A stretch of 46,484 nt of DNA from Polyangiaceae bacterium (GTDB taxonomy: Bacteria > Myxococcota_A > Polyangia > Polyangiales > Polyangiaceae). The DNA is taken from positions 1-46,484 of the forward strand of contig JANRKO010000052.1 in NCBI GenBank assembly GCA_033763455.1, in the 5' to 3' direction. Shown piece by piece: positions 1-34,053 of the stretch (position 1 is the first letter of the stretch; each line of letters starts with the position of its first letter). A program made the position numbers and the translations under genes. A model generated the notes under the pieces. The model was not told where the DNA came from. It did no database searches and saw only the letters and a list, made by a program, of their open reading frames with translations.

Positions 1-397
1 GTAGAAATACTCTGCTTCGGCGCGCTCGTGAGCGAGGCGGGCGATCTCCGGATCTGAAGAGAGGTTTTTGAGCGTGTTGGCTGCGTCAGTCATCGAAGGT
101 TCCTCTTGTTCTAGCTCTTCTAGCTCCTGCCGGCTCTTCACTGAAAGAAAACGGGCACAAAGCCGCACTTTACGTTCGAAATCTGACTCGGGCTCCCCGA
201 CTGGCTTGCGCCGCGGGGCCAGGCCCAGTTGTAGCACATGCAGCGACAGCGCTTCGCTGTAGATTTCCCCACTTTTGTCTCCTCGGAGCCGAAACACCTC
301 GTGAAAACCGTACTCTGGGTGCGGCGCGCCCACCTGCCAGACCACACCGATCGACGGAGTGATCTCTTTGTACGGCATGCCTCGCGTCAGCTGGTTA
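1..397 (-). pseudogene. 5'-truncated Rpn-family / PD-(D/E)XK nuclease (PDDEXK_2-type) gene fragment, running off the window edge
   Basis: Manual translation: HNQLTRGMPYKEITPSIGVVW...FHEVFRLRGDKSGEIYSEALSLHVLQL...MTDAANTLKNLSSDPEIARLAHERAEAEYFY. Matches the QLxRGxxYxxLxPxI...FHxxFxL...LxLHxxEL pattern. The N-terminal catalytic part is missing and the frame starts at the boundary of the 172-bp repeat. Confidence 0.7.
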
Positions 398-569
398 TGA
401 TGCTCCCTCGTGGGTGCGGAGAATCTACGGCCGCTAGCGCTTGCTTCGCGACGCGCTATCGAGGCCCTCTTGTCTGTGCTCGCGCGCGTTGTGCTTGCTC
501 GCACGTGGGTGCCCGGCGCGCTGCGCGCAGCCGAGGGACCTAACGGCTGGGGTGAGAATAGGGGGCGCT
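398..569. repeat. 172-bp structured non-coding repeat, copy 1 (upstream of Rpn gene)
   Basis: Aligns ungapped with 3649-3820 with 8 substitutions by manual count. Contains hairpins TAGCGC-TTGC-ttc-GCGA-c-GCGCTA and CGGCGCGC-tg-CGCGCAGCCG. Confidence 0.95.
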
Positions 570-650
570 GGGAAACGAGCGCTTATTCGCGGCCATTTTC
601 CACATGTTTCACTTGCACTCTGTTCGCCAAAAACGCTATACAAAGATGCT

Positions 651-1634
651 GTGGCCAACCATCACGACGTACTTGTCAAGGAAGCCTTCAGCTCCCTTGA
701 AGACGCCGCCGCCGAGTTCAAAGCCATATTGCCTGAAAGGCTCGTCCAGGCGCTCGACCTCAAGAAGCTCACATTGGTTCCCGGTTCTTTCCGCGACAAG
801 AAGCTCGCCGAAAGTCACACGGATATTCTCTACAGTGTTCCTCTCCGCGCTCGCTCGGCGCTCGTCTACGTGCTCTTCGAACATAAGAGCGACGCTGATC
901 GTTGGACAACCCTGCAGCTTCTCGGCTACATGCTGAACATCTGGGAACGCTTTCGAAAGGACAATCCCAACTCGACCCTGCTGCCGCCAATCATTCCGCT
1001 CGTCTTGCATCACAGCCGAGCCGGCTGGTCCCGCTCCACAAGCTTCAACTCTCTGTTCGATCCTGAGCTGCTCGCAATCCCCGGCGTGACCGAGGGGCTC
1101 CCCAACTTTCATTTTCATCTCGACGACATCAGCCATATTTCGGAAGCTGACCTCCGCGCCCGTGCGTTCAGCGCATTCTCCACCTTGGCTTTGGCTAGCC
1201 TCAGTCGCTCCCGCGCAGGCTCGGAAGACGCCTTTCTCCAAGCCCTGGCCCCGCTCGCCGACCTCTTTGCCCAGCTCCTTTCGGCTGCAGATGGGCCCCG
1301 TGCACTCCGCATCCTCTTCGAGTATATTTCCCGGGTCGCCCCAGGTGTTTCACCCCAGGATTTGGAACGCTATTTAGCCGCAAAATCTCCAGAAGTGCAG
1401 GATCTCGCCATGACCATCGCTGAACAGATCAAACAGGAAGGCCTTGTACAAGGCCGTGTCGAAGGCCGCGTGGAAGGCCAAGCATTAAGCGTGCTAAAGC
1501 AGCTCAAGCTCAAGTTCGGGCCAGTGCCAAGCACCACCGAAAGCGCGATTCTCGCCGCCTCACCAGAGAGGCTCGATCTCTACCTTGAACGTATCCTCAC
1601 GGCCCAGTCCATCGACGATGTGATCAAAAGTTAG
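651..1634 (+). CDS. Rpn/YhgA-like recombination-promoting nuclease (Transposase_31 family), copy 1
   Basis: HDxLVK N-terminus, SF...TDILYSV...YVLFEHKS (PD-(D/E)XK), LPPIIPLVLHH, and C-terminal MTIAEQ..EGxxxG repeats. GTG start at 651 chosen by alignment to copy 2. Confidence 0.92.
   Translation: MANHHDVLVKEAFSSLEDAAAEFKAILPERLVQALDLKKLTLVPGSFRDKKLAESHTDILYSVPLRARSALVYVLFEHKSDADRWTTLQLLGYMLNIWERFRKDNPNSTLLPPIIPLVLHHSRAGWSRSTSFNSLFDPELLAIPGVTEGLPNFHFHLDDISHISEADLRARAFSAFSTLALASLSRSRAGSEDAFLQALAPLADLFAQLLSAADGPRALRILFEYISRVAPGVSPQDLERYLAAKSPEVQDLAMTIAEQIKQEGLVQGRVEGRVEGQALSVLKQLKLKFGPVPSTTESAILAASPERLDLYLERILTAQSIDDVIKS
1410..1634 (+). CDS. Putative internally initiated RpnS (intragenic antitoxin) of Rpn copy 1
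   Basis: In-frame ATG (MTIAEQIKQEG) preceded by SD-like GCAGGA; the same arrangement is kept in copy 2. Confidence 0.55.
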   Translation: MTIAEQIKQEGLVQGRVEGRVEGQALSVLKQLKLKFGPVPSTTESAILAASPERLDLYLERILTAQSIDDVIKS

Positions 1635-1653
1635 CTTGAATTTGTGACATCAG

Positions 1654-1714
1654 GCCTAATTGATCGTTGAAGCAGCCGGCCGATGCGGCCGCTGCTTAAC
1701 GTGGGGCAGTAGGG
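1654..1714 (+). other. attC-like recombination site 1 (61 bp; R' degenerate)
   Basis: GCCTAAT-tgatc-GTTGAAGC-agccggccgatgcggccgct-GCTTAAC-gtggggc-AGTAGGG gives R''/5 nt/8-nt L''/stem/7-nt L'/7 nt/R', with two unpaired bases in the stem. Confidence 0.65.
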
Positions 1715-2310
1715 CGGCGCGAACCCCGAGGGGCATTGGTAATCGAAATAATCTTGATCTCATAGGTGCCGCAAGCCGCGTCCCTGCAACGTCCGGCAGC
1801 CCAAATTTCGCCGTCTCCAAGCATTATCCCCTGAGTGTTGGCGAAAATCGTATCGACCGTCGCTGTTCGAATCACCTCGCTCACCAACGGTCCGAACAGT
1901 GAGTCAAAGCTGGACACTAGCTCTTGCTCACTCATAACGTTAACCCGACGCCCATTTGCCCAAGCATTCAGCGGAAAGGCAACCAAGGACGCCACTGCCT
2001 GCTTGTTGCGCTGGGAAATCGCAGCCTTCAGTCTTCGGAGAAACAGTTCAACATCTTCCCGCTTGAGCCCCGCGTATTTAACCTCAGCTGGACTTCTTTC
2101 GACGGTTCCCTCTTTGACGTCCAGGTGATCGGGCATTCCTGGTGGACCACCGTCTATGTCGCGGGTTGAGGTCTCCGCATGCTTCGCGCCGGTATCAGCC
2201 GTAACAGGTCCTGAACGCCGGTCTCGACCTTGGCATGCGCAATAATGCGCTGAGTAGAACATCAAGAGCATCATCAGCCCCAGCCGGCCCCCTTTAGTAC
2301 GATCCACCAT
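1696..2310 (-). CDS. Putative exported/lipoprotein immunity protein for the RHS lysozyme toxin
   Basis: Overlaps the 3' end of the toxin frame. Hydrophobic N-terminus with Cys, then a compact domain (…VASLVAFPL…GIMLGDGEIW…C…C…IKIISI). Stop codon lies in the attC-like site. Confidence 0.6.
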   Translation of the reverse strand: MVDRTKGGRLGLMMLLMFYSAHYCACQGRDRRSGPVTADTGAKHAETSTRDIDGGPPGMPDHLDVKEGTVERSPAEVKYAGLKREDVELFLRRLKAAISQRNKQAVASLVAFPLNAWANGRRVNVMSEQELVSSFDSLFGPLVSEVIRTATVDTIFANTQGIMLGDGEIWAAGRCRDAACGTYEIKIISITNAPRGSRRPTAPR

Positions 2311-3648
2311 TGAACACCGCCGCCTCTCTAGCACGCCTGAAGACTAGCCCTTGATTCACCTGCCCGCCTGCTTTGTTATAGAGGGCGAACGAAGCGGCCG
2401 CTTGTTGGTAGTTTCCGGCATTCAGGTTCTGAAGCACTGCTGACTTCGCGAAAGCGCCCGTGCCAATGTTGTATGCCAAGCTAGTAAGAGCATCAAACTG
2501 GCGCTGAGTCACGGGAACCTTCACCAGGCTACTAACAGCCTGCGAACGCGGTTGGAGATCATTCATGAAGATTTCCTTGGCGCGTGCGTGGCTGATCCCG
2601 GCCTGAAATTCGGCGGATTCGGTTCCATCGATCGGTCCGTGGTGTACGAGGTGCCCATAGCCAATCGTCGCGTGGTTCGCAGAATCGTTGTACAACTGTG
2701 ACCGGAAGCCCTCGAATCCTGCGATCATGTCGGCCCCTGCCGAACTGATCTGCCGCGAGGCGGCAGGGCGCGGGGCGCTTGCGCCACCACCTCTGCTCGC
2801 CAGCCTTGCGTCCCCATATTGTTCGTCCAGCGCGCTGCGAAACGCCTTCAGGTTCGCGTCGATCTCAGCAGCCCACGCTGCACCCTCGCTCAACGCCTGC
2901 CTTATTGAGGCGTCGGGTGCGTCCCCCTCCTGCGCCTTCGCCTTCCCCGCCCCTGGCGGAACCTTCTCCGCCTGCCCCGAAGACTCAATCACTTTGTATG
3001 CAGCCCCAACCCCCACACTCACCGCGCTACTGAACCCCCCTGTCCCCGCAGCCATCCCCAACCCCTTCGCCGACATCTTCTGCCCAGTCGCGACAGAAAC
3101 AGCAACATAGCGCGCGGCACTCCCCACTGCGCCCAGGCCAATGGAGGTCGCGGCTGTCGGGTTTGTGCCGCCCATCGCTGATACTCCCCCGCTCACCCCG
3201 CCACTTAAGGCACCCGTGGCCAAACCCTTCGCTGATATCGATTCCCCGTGCAGTATGGAATTGGCCGCATTGCCGACCATACCGCTGGCAGCGCCCGCCA
3301 TCACACCGCTCCCGAGAACGCTTCCCACACCACCGGTAATGGCCCCCACCGCCGCAGATATTGCTACCTCTTTCCAGTCTACTGTGCCGTTGACCGCAAG
3401 CTGGGTCACCGTGCTCACCACCGCCCCGACGATGGCGCCGATGGCCATCTGCGCGAAGTTGCCGTCTGGATCGACCCCCATGAGGGGTGACCCATGCACG
3501 TACGCATACGGGTTAGCGTCGCCCTGTAGGTCATGGATCGTCACCGCATCGGGACTCATCCACCGTCCCAGCGCTGTCGAGTAATACCGGGCTCCGAAGT
3601 ACGAGAGGCCAACCTCGATATCCTCCTCTTTCCCTGTGAACTTATTTT
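2294..3648 (-). pseudogene. Orphan RHS C-terminal module: end of RHS core + Gly/Ala-rich segment + GH24 (phage-type) lysozyme toxin
   Basis: In-frame KFTGKEEDIEVGLSYFGARYYSTALGRWMSPD...NPYAYVHGSPLMGVDPDG (RHS core end, DPxG). C-terminal FEGFRSQLYNDSANHATIGYGH is an E-x8-D-x5-T triad, followed by QFDALTSLAYNIG and GLVFRRARE. Truncated at the 172-bp repeat; an ATG at 3559 could still give a 421-aa product. Confidence 0.88.
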
Positions 3649-3820
3649 TGATGCTCCCTCGTGGTTGCGGAGAATCTACAGCCGCTAGCGCTTGCTTCGC
3701 GGCGCGCTACCGAGGCCCTCTTGTCTGTGCTCGCGCGCGTTATGCTTGCTCGCACGCGGCTGCCCGGCGCGCTCCGCGCAGCCGAGGGACCTAACGGCTG
3801 GGGTGAGAATAGGGGGCGCT
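3649..3820. repeat. 172-bp structured non-coding repeat, copy 2
   Basis: About 95% identical to 398-569. Confidence 0.95.
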
Positions 3821-3898
3821 CGAACCCCCCTTTCGCTATCATTTTGCCTACATTCCCGCTTGCGTTCTGTTCTCCAATAGCGCTATGGAGAACGCGCT

Positions 3899-4870
3899 GT
3901 GGCCAAACATCACGACGTGCTCGTCAAGGAAGCCTTCAGCTCTCTTGAAGACGCCGCGGCTGAATTCAAAGCCATATTGCCTGAGCATCTCGTCAACGCG
4001 CTCGACCTCAAGAAGCTCACCTTGGTTCCAGGTTCCTTTCGCAAGAAGGAGCTTGCCGAGAGCCACACAGATATCCTCTACAGCGTTCCGCTTGGCGCGC
4101 GCTCCGCGCTCGTCTATGTACTTTTCGAACACAAGAGCGACGCTGATCGTTGGACAAACCTCCAGCTTCTCGGCTACATGGTAGACATTTGGGAAAACTT
4201 TCGAAAGAACAACCCGGGCGCCACGCTACTGCCGCCCATCATTCCGCTCGTCTTGCATCACAGCCTTGCCGGTTGGTCCCGCTCGACAAGCTTCAGCACC
4301 CTGTTCGATCCTGAGCTGCTCGCAATCCCCGGCGTGAGCGAGGGGCTCCCCAACTTTCACTTTCACCTCGACGACATCAGCGACATTTCTGAAGCCGAGC
4401 TCCGCGCTCGAGCGCTCAGCACATTTTCTACGCTCGCGTTGGCCAGCCTCAGTCGCTCCCGCAGGGGCTCGGAAACCGCCTTTCTCGACGCTTTGGCCCC
4501 GCTCGCCGACCTCTTCGTCCAGCTCCTCTCAGCCCCAAACGGTCCCCGTGCACTCCGCATCCTCTTCGAGTATATTTCCCGAGTCGCCCCAGGTGTTTCA
4601 CCCCAGGACCTGGAACGCTACTTGTCCGAAAAAAATCCCCAAGTGCAGGACCTCGCCATGACTATCGCTGAACAGCTCAAACAGGAAGGCATCGCGCAAG
4701 GCATCCTGCGAGGGCAAGCCTTGAGCCTTCTGAAGCAGCTCAAACTCAAGTTCGGACCGGTGCCAAGCACTACCGAAAGCGCGATTCTCGCTGCCTCCCC
4801 CGAGCAGCTCGATCTCTACCTTGAACGTATTCTCACGGCCCAGTCAATTGACGATGTGGTCCGGAGTTAG
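3899..4870 (+). CDS. Rpn/YhgA-like nuclease, copy 2
   Basis: Close paralog of 651-1634 with the same motifs (TDILYSV, FEHKS, MTIAEQ). Confidence 0.92.
   Translation: MAKHHDVLVKEAFSSLEDAAAEFKAILPEHLVNALDLKKLTLVPGSFRKKELAESHTDILYSVPLGARSALVYVLFEHKSDADRWTNLQLLGYMVDIWENFRKNNPGATLLPPIIPLVLHHSLAGWSRSTSFSTLFDPELLAIPGVSEGLPNFHFHLDDISDISEAELRARALSTFSTLALASLSRSRRGSETAFLDALAPLADLFVQLLSAPNGPRALRILFEYISRVAPGVSPQDLERYLSEKNPQVQDLAMTIAEQLKQEGIAQGILRGQALSLLKQLKLKFGPVPSTTESAILAASPEQLDLYLERILTAQSIDDVVRS
4658..4870 (+). CDS. Putative internally initiated RpnS of Rpn copy 2
   Basis: GCAGGA-cctcgcc-ATG in frame (MTIAEQLKQEG). Confidence 0.55.
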   Translation: MTIAEQLKQEGIAQGILRGQALSLLKQLKLKFGPVPSTTESAILAASPEQLDLYLERILTAQSIDDVVRS

Positions 4871-4895
4871 CTTGACGTGCAAGCCAGACATTCAG

Positions 4896-4956
4896 GCCTA
4901 ATGGATCGTTGAAGCAGCCGGCCGATGCGGCCGCTGCTTAACGTGGTGTATTAGGG
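4896..4956 (+). other. attC-like recombination site 2 (61 bp, AAT/ATT cores)
   Basis: GCCTAAT-ggatc-GTTGAAGC-agccggccgatgcggccgct-GCTTAAC-gtggtgt-ATTAGGG; R'' and R' are nearly complementary. Confidence 0.72.
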
Positions 4957-5597
4957 GAAGCCACCTTCGCGTTGATCGCCATCCACGGGCGAGCGTGCAT
5001 CCGCCATCCCCGAATTAGCAAACCGCAGCCACCGAACACGAACAAGAGGTCGATGTGATAGCCGCCCAGATTTAGGAAAATCGACAGGTAGATTGGAAAC
5101 GTGCGCAACCCACCCAGTAGACCCAATCCAATAAGCAACGCGCCCCCCACCATGGTTCCCTTCGCACGCCGACGCACGGCTTTGCCTGCTGCTAGTGCGA
5201 GTGCCAAGTCGCCTGCCGCAAGGTCGAACCCGCATTCACATCTGACTTGCACCGCGGGAGCGACTTGACCGCAGAGTCCACAAGTCTGCAGGGGACCAAG
5301 TCTGCCCGTTGCTAGCGCTCGAAGAGCAGGGTCAGAATCGTTCTCGGCGATGACCCGAAGCAACGTTTGATTGCGCAAGACACGAACCGCTGCTTCGCGA
5401 ACCTGGGTGCGCGCGTGAGAGCGAATATGATCGTCGGCAAAGAGGCGCTCTGCGGCGATCTCACGCACGTCGGGCGGTGCCTTGCTCTCCAGAATGAGCT
5501 CCAATGTGCCTCGGTCCGTGATACTTGCAATTGTGTCAGCCCGAACAACCGGGTTGGAGTGACGCCACTTCGGACGAAATGAATCTACAAATGACAT
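4938..5597 (-). CDS. Hypothetical membrane protein (N-terminal helical/HEAT-like repeats, Cys zinc ribbon, 2 TM)
   Basis: PKWRHSNPVVRA.../VREIAAERL/VREAAVRVL/LRALATGRL repeats, CGLCG..RCECG, two hydrophobic segments. Stop codon lies within attC-like site 2. Confidence 0.7.
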   Translation of the reverse strand: MSFVDSFRPKWRHSNPVVRADTIASITDRGTLELILESKAPPDVREIAAERLFADDHIRSHARTQVREAAVRVLRNQTLLRVIAENDSDPALRALATGRLGPLQTCGLCGQVAPAVQVRCECGFDLAAGDLALALAAGKAVRRRAKGTMVGGALLIGLGLLGGLRTFPIYLSIFLNLGGYHIDLLFVFGGCGLLIRGWRMHARPWMAINAKVASPNTPR

Positions 5598-5682
5598 CGC
5601 TGAGGCTTAGCCCAATTCCCAGGCCCGAAACCTTTATATCAAGCAATGAAGTACCCGCTCCCAGGTCCCCATAGCCCAACTT

Positions 5683-6018
5683 CTAGCCTTGAACTCGTGG
5701 GGCAGCTTCACCAATCCGCGTCCCACACTTCGCGCAGCGACTCCCGAGGTATGCCCTAGGGAGTCCTAGGAACAAGTCGTCCTCCCATCGGCGGGTTGAC
5801 CAAAAGGTGGCCCGACACTTGGGGCATCGAAAATTGGTAACGAAAGCGTGACCCAAGGCCATCATCGCCATGGCTGCCAGCAGGAACGGCCAGCGATACG
5901 GCGAACCTTGTCTGGTGAGGCTGTTTGCAGCAAAAAAGGAGAGGGCGCTCAGAAGTACCAACGCTCGCCAGCCCCGTAGGCGGCGCTTTGCCTGCACTGC
6001 ATTCTTGAGCTCGCTCAT
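5683..6018 (-). CDS. Small 2-TM protein with CxxC...CxxC, possible immunity protein
   Basis: Two TM segments then CPKC...CAKC; ATGA overlap with the upstream Gly-rich ORF. Confidence 0.6.
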   Translation of the reverse strand: MSELKNAVQAKRRLRGWRALVLLSALSFFAANSLTRQGSPYRWPFLLAAMAMMALGHAFVTNFRCPKCRATFWSTRRWEDDLFLGLPRAYLGSRCAKCGTRIGEAAPRVQG

Positions 6019-6347
6019 TGTATTGGGGTCGTGAACAAGTAGTCCAAAGGCACGGTCACTGTTGTCCCTACCACCCCACCCGCCCAGAGACCGGTCATTG
6101 GCCCAACGCCGACCTGCCCACTAAGTCCGCCCGCCGGCCCGGTAGTTCCCGTAAAACAGACTCCTGGTCCTTCGTATTTTACACCGTAACCAAGCCCGCC
6201 CAAGGTATCCAAACTACTGTAACCGCCTATGGCTGCTCCGGCTCCAAGGTACCCGCCCACGCCCGGGGTATAACTTGCGCTGCCAAGCGCGCCCACTCCG
6301 TCGAATCCCACGTAGACACCCGCGGATAGGTCTATCCCCCCACCCAA
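6015..6347 (-). pseudogene. Gly-rich hydrophobic fragment, probable polymorphic-toxin C-terminal remnant
   Basis: Gly-rich sequence without a convincing start/RBS, translationally coupled to a small TM gene. Confidence 0.4.
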
Positions 6348-6925: not shown

Positions 6926-8449
6926 ATGCGCGTTTCCTTCGCCCGATTTGGGTTTGCTTGTGCAATTGCCTTCACCGCATCTTCTGCTGCTGCCCTTTCC
7001 GGCACCACAGATCCACTTTTTATTCCGGCTAAAGATTGTTCGCTGCCTGGCGTCAACATGAACTGCGTGTTGTGGGAACCGGCCAATTATAACCCGGCGA
7101 CGAAATACCCGCTCATTGTGTACATGCATGGAGCAGGGCAATCGGGTTGGGACGCCAACCCCGCCTCCAATATGGAGAGGATAGAGAACACCAAGAATTT
7201 CGCTGCCATGCTCATGACCGTGGTGAGCGAAGAGATGGGGGTCACCAATGGCGAGTACCTGGTGATGATGCCGCAGGCGCCCGACTTTGAGACTACTCCT
7301 CCGAACGGCGGAGCCTACGTGCAATGGGACTGGGGCCAGCAGCAATCCTACTCGATGACAACCCTTGCGGAGAGCCCCACCATGCAGCGCGCGCGCGCCA
7401 TGATCGATCAGGTGCGGGGGACGCACAACGTAGACGCTGATCGTATCTACGCCATCGGAGTTTCTATGGGAGGTTTCGGTGCTTGGGATGCGGCCTCGCG
7501 CTACCCGGGGGTGTTTGCCGCAACTCTCCCGAGCGCAGGCGGTGGGTCACCGGATGCCGCTTCTCTGCTCAAGAACATGGCCATTTGGTCGCATCATAGC
7601 GATGCCGATGGCGCCGTACCCTCAAACAGCGATCGAGAAATGTTTCGCGCTGTCGCACTCGCTGGTGGGCGCCCTGTATACACAGAAACCATAAGCTCCG
7701 ATCACTCAGACGGAGGCGTTTCGAGCAATCCCAATTACCTCTCATGGATGTTAGCCCAACGTCGCGGAGTTCCAGCGACTTCCAATCCGGCGCTCGCCTT
7801 CGATCCGCCTGGCGGGGCACTTACATCGCCGGTAATGGTGACCATCTCGAGCGATCAAGGAAGCAACATCCGCTACACGCTTGACGGTACAGTGCCCTCT
7901 TCTTCAACGGGCATGGTGTACAATGGCCCCATTGCGCTCACGGATAGCGTGGTACTGATCGCCATGGTGGAGGGCGGCGGGGAAAGAGTCTTTCACGCGG
8001 CGCCGTTTCAGGTTGACGGCAAGCCGCTGCCTGCCGGAGCCGAACTTGTCAATGGCACACCCCCTCCCCTTCCTCCGGTAACGGGATCCGGGGGCTCGAA
8101 TAGCGGTCCAACAAGCGGGGGCGGAGGCACACCGAACGTCCCCAATCCCGCGAGCGGCGGAGCTTTTAACGCGAGCGGCGGCGCGGCGAGTGCCAGTGGC
8201 GGCTCTTCCGCCAATCCTTTCCCGTCTTCAACCGGAACCGCATCGGCTCCTGTCCCCAGCGGGACCACACCTGTCCCCGGCTCCACCCCCGCACCTGCCG
8301 GCGGCACAACCGCGCCCAAGGCTTCAAGGGGCGAGGCAAAGTCCGGCTGCGCGCTACACAGTTCGGGGCAAGGCGGAGAGGGCACACTCGCTATCTTCGG
8401 CTTAGTGCTCGGCGGCCTCGCTCTCTCTAGGCGCAAACGCTCCTTTTGA
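6926..8449 (+). CDS. Secreted alpha/beta-hydrolase (esterase/peptidase) with Fn3-associated domain, Pro/Gly/Ser linker and MYXO-CTERM
   Basis: AGGAG RBS then signal peptide; YPLIVYMHGAG; GVSMGG nucleophile elbow; IRYTLDGTVP; C-terminal SGCA...TM...RRKR. Confidence 0.85.
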   Translation: MRVSFARFGFACAIAFTASSAAALSGTTDPLFIPAKDCSLPGVNMNCVLWEPANYNPATKYPLIVYMHGAGQSGWDANPASNMERIENTKNFAAMLMTVVSEEMGVTNGEYLVMMPQAPDFETTPPNGGAYVQWDWGQQQSYSMTTLAESPTMQRARAMIDQVRGTHNVDADRIYAIGVSMGGFGAWDAASRYPGVFAATLPSAGGGSPDAASLLKNMAIWSHHSDADGAVPSNSDREMFRAVALAGGRPVYTETISSDHSDGGVSSNPNYLSWMLAQRRGVPATSNPALAFDPPGGALTSPVMVTISSDQGSNIRYTLDGTVPSSSTGMVYNGPIALTDSVVLIAMVEGGGERVFHAAPFQVDGKPLPAGAELVNGTPPPLPPVTGSGGSNSGPTSGGGGTPNVPNPASGGAFNASGGAASASGGSSANPFPSSTGTASAPVPSGTTPVPGSTPAPAGGTTAPKASRGEAKSGCALHSSGQGGEGTLAIFGLVLGGLALSRRKRSF

Positions 8450-12444: not shown

Positions 12445-13428
12445 TCAGGGCTTTTCGGGAGGCTCTATTGGCGCCGGGGCGGCCGCTCGGCGCGACAGGG
12501 GGTGGCTCTTGTCGTAGACGGCGAAGAGCTGATCCAGCGAAAGATGCGTGTAGCGCTGGGTCGTGGAAAGGCTGGTGTGGCCGAGCATTTCCTGGATCGA
12601 ACGCAAATCCGCGCCACCTTCCAGCAAGTGCGTTGCGAAGGAATGCCGCAGGGCATGCGGGTGCAAATCTGGCCGAGCCGCCCCAAGAGCGCCGTAACGC
12701 CGGGTAAAATATTGGATGGCGCGCACCGTCATGCGCGCACCCCGCTGATTCAACAAGAGCGCCGTGGGATGCTGCATCCCAGTCTTCGGATGCACGAGCT
12801 CCGATCGGAGCGGCAAGTAGTCGTTGAGCACAGCGAGCGCCTGGGTGCCCAAAGGAACCAACCGCTCTTTGTTCCCCTTTCCCACTACGCGGATAAGCCC
12901 AGTTTGGCGATCCACATCACCCACATCCAAGCTGCCCAATTCGCTCACACGCAGGCCCGAGCCATAGAGCAGCTCCAGCGCCAAAGCATCGCGCAGCTTC
13001 ACTGCGGACTTCGATAGTGGCTGCAAGAGGGGTGATTCCATCACCTCAGAGGCGCCATGTGGGCTAAGAAATGCGGGCATTTTGCGGCGCACTTTGGGGC
13101 TCGCCAAGAGCGTCGTGGGATTTTTCACGACGAGGCGCTGGCGTTCCAAAAAAGAAAAGAATGCACGCACCGCGGCTAACTTGCGTCCCAAGGTGGCCGG
13201 CACTACGCGCTCAGCTAGATCGCCCAGCCAAGCTCGCAACACTAAGCGGTCCACATCTACGGGAGTGGTGATGTTCGGGAAGCGCTCCTCCAGAAAGGTA
13301 AGTAACTGGTCAAGATCGCGCCGGTAAGCGTTCACGGTGTTCGCAGGCGAACGGCGCACCTCTACGAGCGAAGCAACAAACTCAGCCAGGGCACGACGCA
13401 GCGCTGTGTCCGCGCCAGAGGTCGTCAT
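12445..13428 (-). CDS. xerC: Tyrosine recombinase XerC/XerD
   Basis: SANTVNAYRRDL-like N-domain, LLYGSGLRVSEL, GKGNKER, HPHALRHSFATHLLEGGADLRSIQEMLGH..LSTTQRYTH. Confidence 0.88.
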   Translation of the reverse strand: MTTSGADTALRRALAEFVASLVEVRRSPANTVNAYRRDLDQLLTFLEERFPNITTPVDVDRLVLRAWLGDLAERVVPATLGRKLAAVRAFFSFLERQRLVVKNPTTLLASPKVRRKMPAFLSPHGASEVMESPLLQPLSKSAVKLRDALALELLYGSGLRVSELGSLDVGDVDRQTGLIRVVGKGNKERLVPLGTQALAVLNDYLPLRSELVHPKTGMQHPTALLLNQRGARMTVRAIQYFTRRYGALGAARPDLHPHALRHSFATHLLEGGADLRSIQEMLGHTSLSTTQRYTHLSLDQLFAVYDKSHPLSRRAAAPAPIEPPEKP

Positions 13429-33338: not shown

Positions 33339-33674
33339 CCGTTCCTTCCGGAAGGGCAAACGAAAGCCGGCGCTCGGACGCGCCGTTCTCCCGCTTGCCC
33401 AACCCCAAGAATATTTCGGCTAACGCGCTAGCACCACCTCCCGATGATCGCCCCTCCCGTGGCTCCCGCTTCGGGAGACACTGGGTGAGGGGCAAGCTGC
33501 CGCTTCAAGCGGCAGCAGGGGTGGGCATCCAACCCAATCGGTGGGTCCCACTGCGAATGTCTTCGCTCGCCGCTGAATCAGAGGTCTCCTCGCGACGGCG
33601 GCCTTACGATCAGGATCTCCTCGCGACAGGCGCCCTGGAGTACTCGCAAAATTTCTGGTACTCCTCGCGGGCCA

Positions 33675-34048
33675 GCGCAGTTCAGGCTGCCGCTCGGGGG
33701 CTTTGGTCCCCGGGAGGAAAGTCCGGGCTCTATAGGGCAGGATGCCGGGTAACGCCCGGTGGGGGTAACCTCGAGGAAAGTGCAACAGAAAATAGACCGC
33801 CCGCACCGTTTCGGCGTTGCGGGTAAGGGTGAAACGGTGGAGTAAAAGCCCACCGCACAACTGGTAACAGTGGTGGCAAGGCAAACCCCATCCAGAGCAA
33901 GACCCCGTATGGGAGCGTTTGAGGGCTGCCCGCCCGAGCTCCTGGGTAGGTCGCATGAGGCATTCGGCGACGGATGTCCCAGATGAATGGTAGCCGTCCC
34001 ACGAAGGGCAACCGACGCGGGAAACAGAACCCGGCTTACGAACAGCGC
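33675..34048 (+). ncRNA. rnpB: RNase P RNA (type A)
   Basis: GAGGAAAGTCCGGGCTC, GAAAGTGCAACAGAAA, GGGTGAAACGGTGG, GGCAAACCCCA..GAGCAAG, AGATGAATG, ACAGAACCCGGCTTA; P1 pairing GCGCAGTTC/GAACAGCGC. Confidence 0.97.
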
Positions 34049-34053
34049 CGACC

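Follow-up and report, generated by a model that had tools for sequence, protein, structure and literature searches.

AttC-like hairpins with a T:A pair at the predicted crossover point border Rhs toxin and nuclease modules in a Polyangiaceae genome

In integron sites only the GTT/AAC triplet is regarded as invariant. Frumerie et al. (2010, PMC2811028) state that every integron characterised up to then has it, and propose that it is kept for cassette exchangeability rather than for mechanism. In the experiments they report with the integrase IntI1, the sole requirement on the triplet was that both partners have the same first base: the first base of GTT could be any base when common to both partners, a change in one partner lowered recombination 1,000- to 10,000-fold, the same change in both restored it, and a G-to-A site was cleaved in vitro (PMC2811028). 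AttC sites are also described without an integron integrase, as clusters (CALIN) or single sites (SALIN) (Cury 2016, PMC4889954; Loot et al., 10.1101/2022.09.11.507474), and genomic insertion sites are given a 5'-GWT-3' consensus (10.1101/2022.09.11.507474). Here we analysed a 46,484-nt stretch of DNA from a Polyangiaceae bacterium (GCA_033763455.1, contig JANRKO010000052.1, positions 1 to 46,484; hereafter the window), which carries two attC-like hairpins, sites a and b, with AAT and ATT in the place of AAC and GTT. The window is contig C52 of the host genome, G000, an assembly of 6.56 Mb in 92 contigs that is 93.7% complete. We use class 2 for attC-like sites with a T:A (A|TT) crossover pair and canonical for those with C:G (G|TT). 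In the open literature that we searched, neither natural AAT/ATT attC sites nor an association of attC sites with Rhs modules had been reported.

Sites a and b (Table 1) are imperfect palindromes with a mutual identity of 94%. In both, the left outer box R'' (GCCTAAT) is followed by a 5-nt spacer, the hairpin GTT-G-AAGCAG-C-CGGCCG / loop ATG / CGGCCG-CTGCTT-AAC, a 7-nt spacer and the right outer box R'. The 8-letter left box GTTGAAGC lies opposite the 7-letter right box GCTTAAC, and a second bulged base, a C, stands ahead of the G+C-rich CGGCCG/CGGCCG stem with its 3-nt loop. An earlier reading of the window from its letters alone (below, the sequence-only reading) had described the 5-nt spacer, the 8- versus 7-letter boxes, the second bulge and the AAT/ATT core, all of which were borne out; the AGTAGGG box of site a, which it called decayed, was confirmed in sequence. 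It had also proposed folding both strands to place the extrahelical bases. Single-strand DNA folds gave the hairpin on either strand, with the single-base bulges of both sites on the 5' arm of the + strand, that is, the 3' arm of the bottom strand; in 81-nt windows the fold z-scores were -3.7 and -4.1 for site b and -1.9 and -1.8 for site a. A 35-nt core occurs exactly twice in the window, with none expected from 100 shuffles. Neither the sites nor the 180-nt segment described below matched an Rfam family, at gathering threshold over the window or in E-value mode over positions 300-1800.

The relation to integrons came from a covariance model, R1, built solely from six AAT/ATT hairpins. R1 found matches in 10 of 151 genomes of the family and in 2 of 151 sampled across the order; the only foreign match at order level, in G197, was without R boxes and was dropped, and those in G064 and G005 spanned the model's inner stem only. 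Full-length foreign matches have RYYYAAC and GTTRRRY where the model has AAT and ATT. Among the arrays found by R1 were one of five sites in ~3 kb (G132:C230) and one of at least six sites straight after intI (443.5 bits; G163:C39). The host genome itself has an intact IntI on contig C15 (TIGR02249, 427.7 bits; cut-off 265), where R1 with filters off matched, at 15-22.5 bits, six + strand attC sites up to the contig end. This C15 integron (locus L013, 7145-13642) has a divergent layout, with intI on the minus strand, an attI-like junction near 8370-8390 and then the array, and all six sites follow the order (G)YCCAAC, 5 nt, CGTTGCAGCTGACG..., ...CGCAGCTGAACG, 7 nt, GTTGGRC. R1 recognised no sites in the G003 integron.

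Structurally, the canonical sites of these sedentary chromosomal integrons (C15, G163, G132) and the class 2 sites have in common the R''-spacer-L''...L'-spacer-R' palindrome, the 5- and 7-nt spacers, the L-box words CGTTG.AGC.GACGG ... CCGC.GCT.AACG and a similar length (57-70 nt in class 2, 60-63 nt in G163). When folded as bottom strands, site b and the canonical sites C15_3 and C15_4 share one plan, with an R stem, an internal loop that is asymmetric and, on the 3' arm, two single-base bulges separated by 6 bp, a spacing that agrees with the T-N6-G arrangement described for efficient attC sites (PMC3518468). Class 2 sites have the R''/R' and L''/L' pairing, the bottom-strand extrahelical bases, the asymmetric central spacer and the homology to arrays beside intI that mark attC sites; they depart from RYYYAAC/GTTRRRY at the triplet and keep the remaining R-box consensus. 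From the matches to arrays beside intI, together with the same spacers and bulge plan, the hairpins and canonical attC sites are shown, at the level of sequence and predicted fold, to share ancestry and fold geometry, in line with the attC lineage that the sequence-only reading had assigned. Its further suggestion, that deltaproteobacterial-type integrons have internally inverted attC sites, found no support, the attC sites in the integrons of G000 and G163 being ordinary. The two kinds differ in the crossover pair and in setting: canonical sites form arrays beside intI, whereas class 2 sites lie singly or in pairs on other contigs, with ~3 kb modules that have genes on both strands, and sites a and b stand outside the integron array itself.

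Several features of the canonical integrons were recorded alongside. The first two C15 cassettes are near-duplicates, and contig C1 holds one further canonical-type site. Canonical cassettes encode immunity-type genes, WapI-like on C15 (cassette 12766-13215) and SUKH-1 in G132. In G163:C39 (45826-53935; L087), intI is on the same strand as the attC array and is transcribed towards it.

Class 2 is small. Close copies of the hairpin number five in G000, two on the window contig and one each on C14, C36 and C71, and the covariance model adds two more distant ones on C38 and C23, or about 7 copies in 6.6 Mb; the same-genus genome G001 holds four (C79, C184 and two on C242). A strict A|TT pattern scan, which requires the L boxes of these hairpins so that other A|TT families would escape it, returned only two loci in 185,579 species genomes, both in one Polyangiales metagenome-assembled genome, and one contig (L069) in a metagenome collection. 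BLAST with the hairpin across 61 relatives gave full-length matches in G000 and G001 only, five other genomes having partial matches of 20-30 nt. The set examined below comprises 12 sites, seven from G000, four from G001 and one from L069, and within what was searched class 2 is limited to one Polyangiales genus and this one metagenome contig.

At the crossover pair the two classes are cleanly divided. Position 7 of R'' is T and position 1 of R' is A in 12/12 class 2 sites, while C and G occupy these positions in 22/22 canonical sites, seven in G000 and 15 in G163, G132, G078, G020, G107 and G061. The class 2 R'' triplet is AAT at ten sites and CAT at two (C14, C23); the R' triplet is ATT at eleven, with AGT in site a. 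Pairing holds in 89% of cells across the 12 sites, and both members have changed in 7 of 21 pairs, a level reached by 0 of 500 shuffles, and sliding the partner positions abolishes the signal. The first bulged G is invariant, the fold is kept throughout, and both bulges hold fixed positions in 11 of the 12 sites across about 40% divergence; by rough figures, identity of the compared columns within the class drops to about 55-60%, and G001:C242a carries an internal deletion. These observations show that the class 2 hairpin has been maintained through compensatory changes.

A rival origin would be an ordinary bidirectional terminator or a repetitive extragenic palindromic (REP)-like palindrome between convergent genes, unrelated to integrons. 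Convergent open reading frames (ORFs) do flank the site at 10 of the 12 places, and the stem is rich in G+C. The sites, however, have no T-run on either strand, and a terminator scan of 300-5700 gave four terminator-like sites with neither hairpin among them. Moreover, a model made from the hairpins alone matches canonical attC arrays beside intI, and about seven copies in the host genome is few, REP families having far higher copy numbers. We consider this origin highly improbable, and rejected it on the absent T-run, the terminator scan and the attC homology. Our first idea, in which the hairpin was the mere terminator or end of a duplicated nuclease gene (rpn, see below), was dropped after R1 matched attC arrays.

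We tentatively favour the reading that the hairpins are integron attC-type sites of a diverged class, in which C:G (AAC/GTT) has become T:A (AAT/ATT) at the point of strand exchange, and that they can recombine with one another; by analogy with class 1 sites this comes close to being probable, and falls somewhat short of it. In the proposed mechanism, the IntI encoded on C15 would still bind the folded bottom strand and cut between A and T of 5'-AAT-3'. Because the exchanged base must pair in the partner, A|TT sites would recombine mutually, allowing excision, exchange and reinsertion of modules, and would recombine very poorly with the G|TT attI and attC of the main integron; class 1 mutagenesis predicts about 1000-fold less recombination with G|TT. 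The outcome would be a separate cassette pool storing toxin/immunity and nuclease modules. All structural determinants that could be checked are kept in class 2. The mutants of Frumerie et al. (PMC2811028) are alike in that the first GTT base and its AAC partner were changed together with the fold kept; as described there, they differ in being laboratory constructs in attC-aadA7, the Vibrio cholerae repeat (VCR) and attI1 with IntI1, whereas class 2 is natural, comprises at least 12 sites and lies beside a different IntI. That the arrangement serves as a natural second 'address', with a G|TT integron and an A|TT family in one genome, one integrase for both and an insulated pool of inverted Rhs toxin/immunity modules with nuclease genes, is a bolder proposal that we regard as rather doubtful. 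If true, it would provide a site-specific 3' junction for polymorphic-toxin diversification, and crossover at the site together with homologous exchange in the Rhs core could swap toxin tips, since a site of this kind also terminates a full-length Rhs gene, at G001:C184.

The genes around the sites recur in a consistent layout. On the R' side, a mechanically called minus-strand ORF overlaps or ends within 25 nt of 8/12 sites and within 60 nt of 10/12, the remaining two being one site at a contig end and one left out. Rhs toxin operons occur at five of the 12 sites, and all five face the R' side: in the window; at G001:C79, where the Rhs-core fragment is 45% identical to that of the window over 176 residues and the toxin and downstream ORF are unrelated; at L069, with an Rhs tip and a 156-aa ORF; at G001:C184, with a long (full-length) Rhs protein with a PT-HINT domain and a 101-aa ORF; and at G001:C242, where an Rhs tip and an Imm40 gene are accompanied by a 157-aa ORF whose stop falls in the right box, in the frame also used by two window ORFs. 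These window ORFs end in TAPR* (1696-2334) and NTPR* (4938-5597), both stopping at the TTA of the right box (L'). The shared stop and the inversion of the sites relative to these ORFs had both been pointed out from the letters alone, and the inversion recurs in all five Rhs operons. Taking an ORF that ends in the site as a sign of a cassette was less secure: the ends are real, yet two of the three minus-strand frames meet a stop there anyway. Relative to the sites, it is the + strand rpn genes that are oriented like ordinary cassette genes, not the minus-strand ORFs; these rpn genes, the 1.3 kb repeat that contains them, the Rhs identity of the antisense genes and the position of both sites outside the integron array had escaped the sequence-only reading.

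On the R'' side, a + strand nuclease-type gene is present at five sites. Three of these have rpn, G001:C242 has DUF559, and C36 has a VapB-like/PIN pair in which the PIN match is under cut-off and the frame apparently broken; C14 and C71 retain remnants. A module is bracketed by two sites both in the window (3,242 nt) and in G001:C242 (2,862 nt), with the same layout and different genes. The bracketed module of the window holds an antisense toxin, with an Rhs C-terminal (Rhs-CT) architecture and a lysozyme domain, together with a putative immunity gene, the structured segment of 180 nt and, in sense orientation, an Rpn nuclease gene.

Flanking DNA switches at the site junctions. The rpn-type left flank is joined to three different right flanks, the C14 and C36 sites have a common right flank and different left flanks, and C36 and C71 have only 45 nt of left flank in common. 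Sequencing run X2, which belongs to another study, contains a contig of 397 nt that is identical to the window over 4662-4958 and then continues for 100 nt unlike it, breaking 2 nt past R'; a 20-nt word from this continuation is absent from G000. This variant, one contig with a depth of about 5, hints at exchange. At the C38 locus, synteny with G002 stops short of the site. A stretch of ~57 nt, 14 nt to the left of the C38 site (G000:C38 41456-41512, L060 5456-5512), is found again in G001:C21, G001:C183 and G002:C474; it stands at contig ends in two relatives, behind an apparent transposase-gene end, and looks like the remnant of an insertion-sequence end. Near the C71 site (L016, 2531-4778) are an rve-type transposase gene and an MmeI-like methyltransferase/helicase gene, forming a patch of mobile and defence genes.

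A number of observations weigh against class 2 as a family of mutually recombining sites. Neither an A|TT attI nor a second integron integrase was found; the window's own recombinase (12445-13428) is XerC-like, and no IntI was found in G001, a 95%-complete assembly with four class 2 sites. The modules, at ~3 kb, with genes on both strands and a 1.3 kb repeat inside, are unlike ordinary one-gene cassettes, and duplication with homologous recombination could have produced their structure. No recombination event was observed, and joints of one site to another were absent from the Logan contigs of four runs, contigs of a kind that drop rare forms. At its left end the 1.3 kb unit reads TTATGA or TTTTGA, which fits the expected R' remainder in part only. 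The data of Frumerie et al. concern IntI1 and class 1 sites, not the C15 integrase. AGT in site a and CAT in two sites amount to visible decay. Finally, a tree of the sites, from 56 columns, which are too few, needs three class changes; the approximately unbiased (AU) test does not reject a single origin (p 0.43), and because this origin is left standing the uniform T:A in 12/12 sites may be inherited rather than selected.

The main rival explanation takes up several of these points. It holds that the sites are locked relics: the change from C:G to T:A cut the cassettes off from the G|TT integron, and the toxin/immunity and nuclease modules became fixed in the chromosome, the hairpin persisting by descent or as the end of two convergent transcripts and the modules spreading and diversifying by duplication and by homologous recombination via the 1.3 kb repeats and Rhs-core fragments. 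We see this as a real possibility, if still less than probable. Besides the single origin allowed by the AU test, it draws on the 84% identity of the 1.3 kb direct repeats, on the Rhs-core fragments with which the toxin modules begin, as orphan Rhs modules do, on partial decay (the AGT and CAT triplets and the internal deletion in G001:C242a), on the presence of sites in G001, where no IntI was found, and on the failure to find any A|TT attI; Cury et al. propose degenerate CALIN sites as a step to cassette fixation (PMC4889954). It is less easily reconciled with both R-box arms having changed together, with the seven compensatory pairs, with bulges that have stayed fixed at 11 of 12 sites when a plain terminator needs none, with the missing T-run, and with breakpoints in flank similarity that fall at the R' end. 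Should the sites prove inactive, they would still document a one-base-pair route to the chromosomal fixation of cassettes.

Compared with CALIN as defined by Cury et al. (PMC4889954), sites a and b, at 3,242 nt apart, fall within the 4 kb cluster limit, and the window has no IntI while the genome has one elsewhere. The label hinges on the triplet criterion, as the CALIN and SALIN described in these sources carry AAC/GTT; the scattered class 2 copies fit single attC sites (10.1101/2022.09.11.507474).

A direct repeat of ~1.32 kb, with copies at 395-1714 and 3646-4956 (BLAST identity 84% over 1329 nt), has sites a and b as its right-hand ends, and because both end one repeat, their likeness arises by duplication and not as two independent occurrences. 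Each copy runs from a 180-nt segment through a + strand Rpn/YhgA-type gene to the hairpin. In run X1, paralogue contigs run on past 394, the divergence from the window starting after that position, and runs X1 and X2 both have different cargo beyond 3822. The left ~30 nt of the second copy of the segment overlap the truncated Rhs-core frame on the minus strand. The segment also occurs at G000:C36 19185-19361, at C87 61609-61780 and partly on C48, as well as in G001:C79, G001:C258 and G003:C226, and among the 41 genomes searched it is confined to the host genus. It is predicted to form a single long branched hairpin whose two ends pair, with four compensatory pairs among four copies. It stands ahead of varied + strand genes (rpn, the VapB-like/PIN pair, DUF559), its left edge adjoining 5'-truncated genes, and may act as a promoter/leader or mark where a mobile unit ends.

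The two rpn genes are paralogues with 80% amino acid identity. Both belong to the Transposase_31 family by PF04754 scores of 145.1 and 141.3 bits (cut-off 21); a C-terminal DUF4351 match is weak and under cut-off, and all NCBIfam RpnA/Rpn subfamily matches are under cut-off. In another explanation, the 5' segment, rpn and the hairpin would together make up a mobile Rpn-nuclease unit with the hairpin as its right end; the unit would be moved by Rpn or another transposition activity and would have captured an attC. Three intact copies exist, two in the window and one at G001:C79 (83% identity), the left end adjoins 5'-truncated genes (at 394/395 the PDDEXK_2 fragment, near 3650 the Rhs core), and copies lie at contig ends. 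An intact rpn is directly upstream at only 3/12 sites, however; some sites have a DUF559 or PIN gene, and some lack a sense gene (C38, G001:C184, L069); on C36 the 5' segment and the hairpin flank the VapB-like/PIN pair; and neither terminal inverted repeats nor target duplications were seen. We judge such a unit unlikely.

If class 2 is a natural, compensated A|TT (AA|T) lineage beside a canonical integron, it would constitute a natural test of the exchangeability idea of Frumerie et al. and would show how a cassette pool can become insulated or locked. Such sites would be missed or scored too low by tools and primers built around the triplet. There would also be a link between integron-type sites and polymorphic toxin modules of the Rhs kind, in which the exchange junctions on the 3' side are poorly understood.

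Table 1. Features of the window, with positions counted from its first letter
Feature	Positions	Strand	Remarks
5'-truncated PD-(D/E)XK (PDDEXK_2-like) fragment	1-394	-	22.4 bits against a cut-off of 27.4; profile positions 94-218
5' segment, copy 1	395-572	+	Strongly self-paired; left end of the 1.3 kb repeat; unit begins at 395, after G394
Rpn/YhgA-like PD-(D/E)XK nuclease gene 1	651-1634	+	Transposase_31 PF04754, 2.7e-42; stop 19 nt ahead of site a
Class 2 attC-like site a	1654-1714	+	R'' GCCTAAT 1654-1660; R' AGTAGGG 1708-1714; model R1 90.7 bits; bulged G 1669 and C 1676; apical loop 1683-1685; predicted crossover between 1708 and 1709
Putative immunity ORF, 212 aa	1696-2334	-	Downstream of the toxin; last four codons and stop within site a
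Orphan Rhs C-terminal toxin module	2294-3706	-	Open frame from 3706, first ATG 3559
5' segment, copy 2	3646-3822	+	95% identical to copy 1
Rpn/YhgA-like nuclease gene 2	3899-4870	+	PF04754, 4e-41; stop 25 nt ahead of site b
Class 2 attC-like site b	4896-4956	+	R'' GCCTAAT 4896-4902; R' ATTAGGG 4950-4956; model R1 93.4 bits; predicted crossover between 4950 and 4951
219-aa ORF	4938-5597	-	Predicted membrane and zinc-ribbon-like features; last four codons and stop within site b
XerC/XerD-like tyrosine recombinase	12445-13428	-	298 bits, just under the XerC cut-off of 335; not an integron integrase
Bacterial RNase P RNA, class A	33674-34053	+	303.6 bits

The antisense toxin gene of the window begins with an Rhs-associated core that is truncated at its 5' end (TIGR03696, 64.5 bits; cut-off 32.5; profile positions 16-75 of 76) and into which the open frame extends upstream of the ATG; a Gly-zipper region and then a lysozyme domain (Phage_lysozyme, 132 bits, 1.9e-38) follow, which identifies it as an Rhs-CT toxin. 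This conforms to the general picture of orphan Rhs C-terminal modules in polymorphic toxin loci: a 5'-truncated core, a variable toxin and a small downstream ORF, with the core kept and the toxin and ORF varying between genomes. In contrast to that picture, an inverted attC-like hairpin closes each module here, and a nuclease gene unit stands between one module and the next. On C36, a paralogous Rhs-core fragment carries another tip. The ORF downstream of the window toxin is a putative immunity gene, from its position only. Neither it nor the 219-aa ORF matched Pfam or NCBIfam, and the two showed no detectable similarity with each other's neighbours; G+C content at third codon positions (GC3) gave no separation of real from spurious ORFs.

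At the left edge of the window, the PDDEXK_2-like fragment is without its first ~90 residues and is cut exactly at the start of the repeat unit. Upstream of the 219-aa ORF, the minus strand of 5683-6347 holds two small ORFs, one of 110 aa that is glycine-rich and one of 111 aa with CxxC pairs and hydrophobic stretches; neither matched a family, and they could be a further small toxin/immunity set. The RNase P RNA listed in Table 1 is the sole match in the window at the Rfam gathering threshold.

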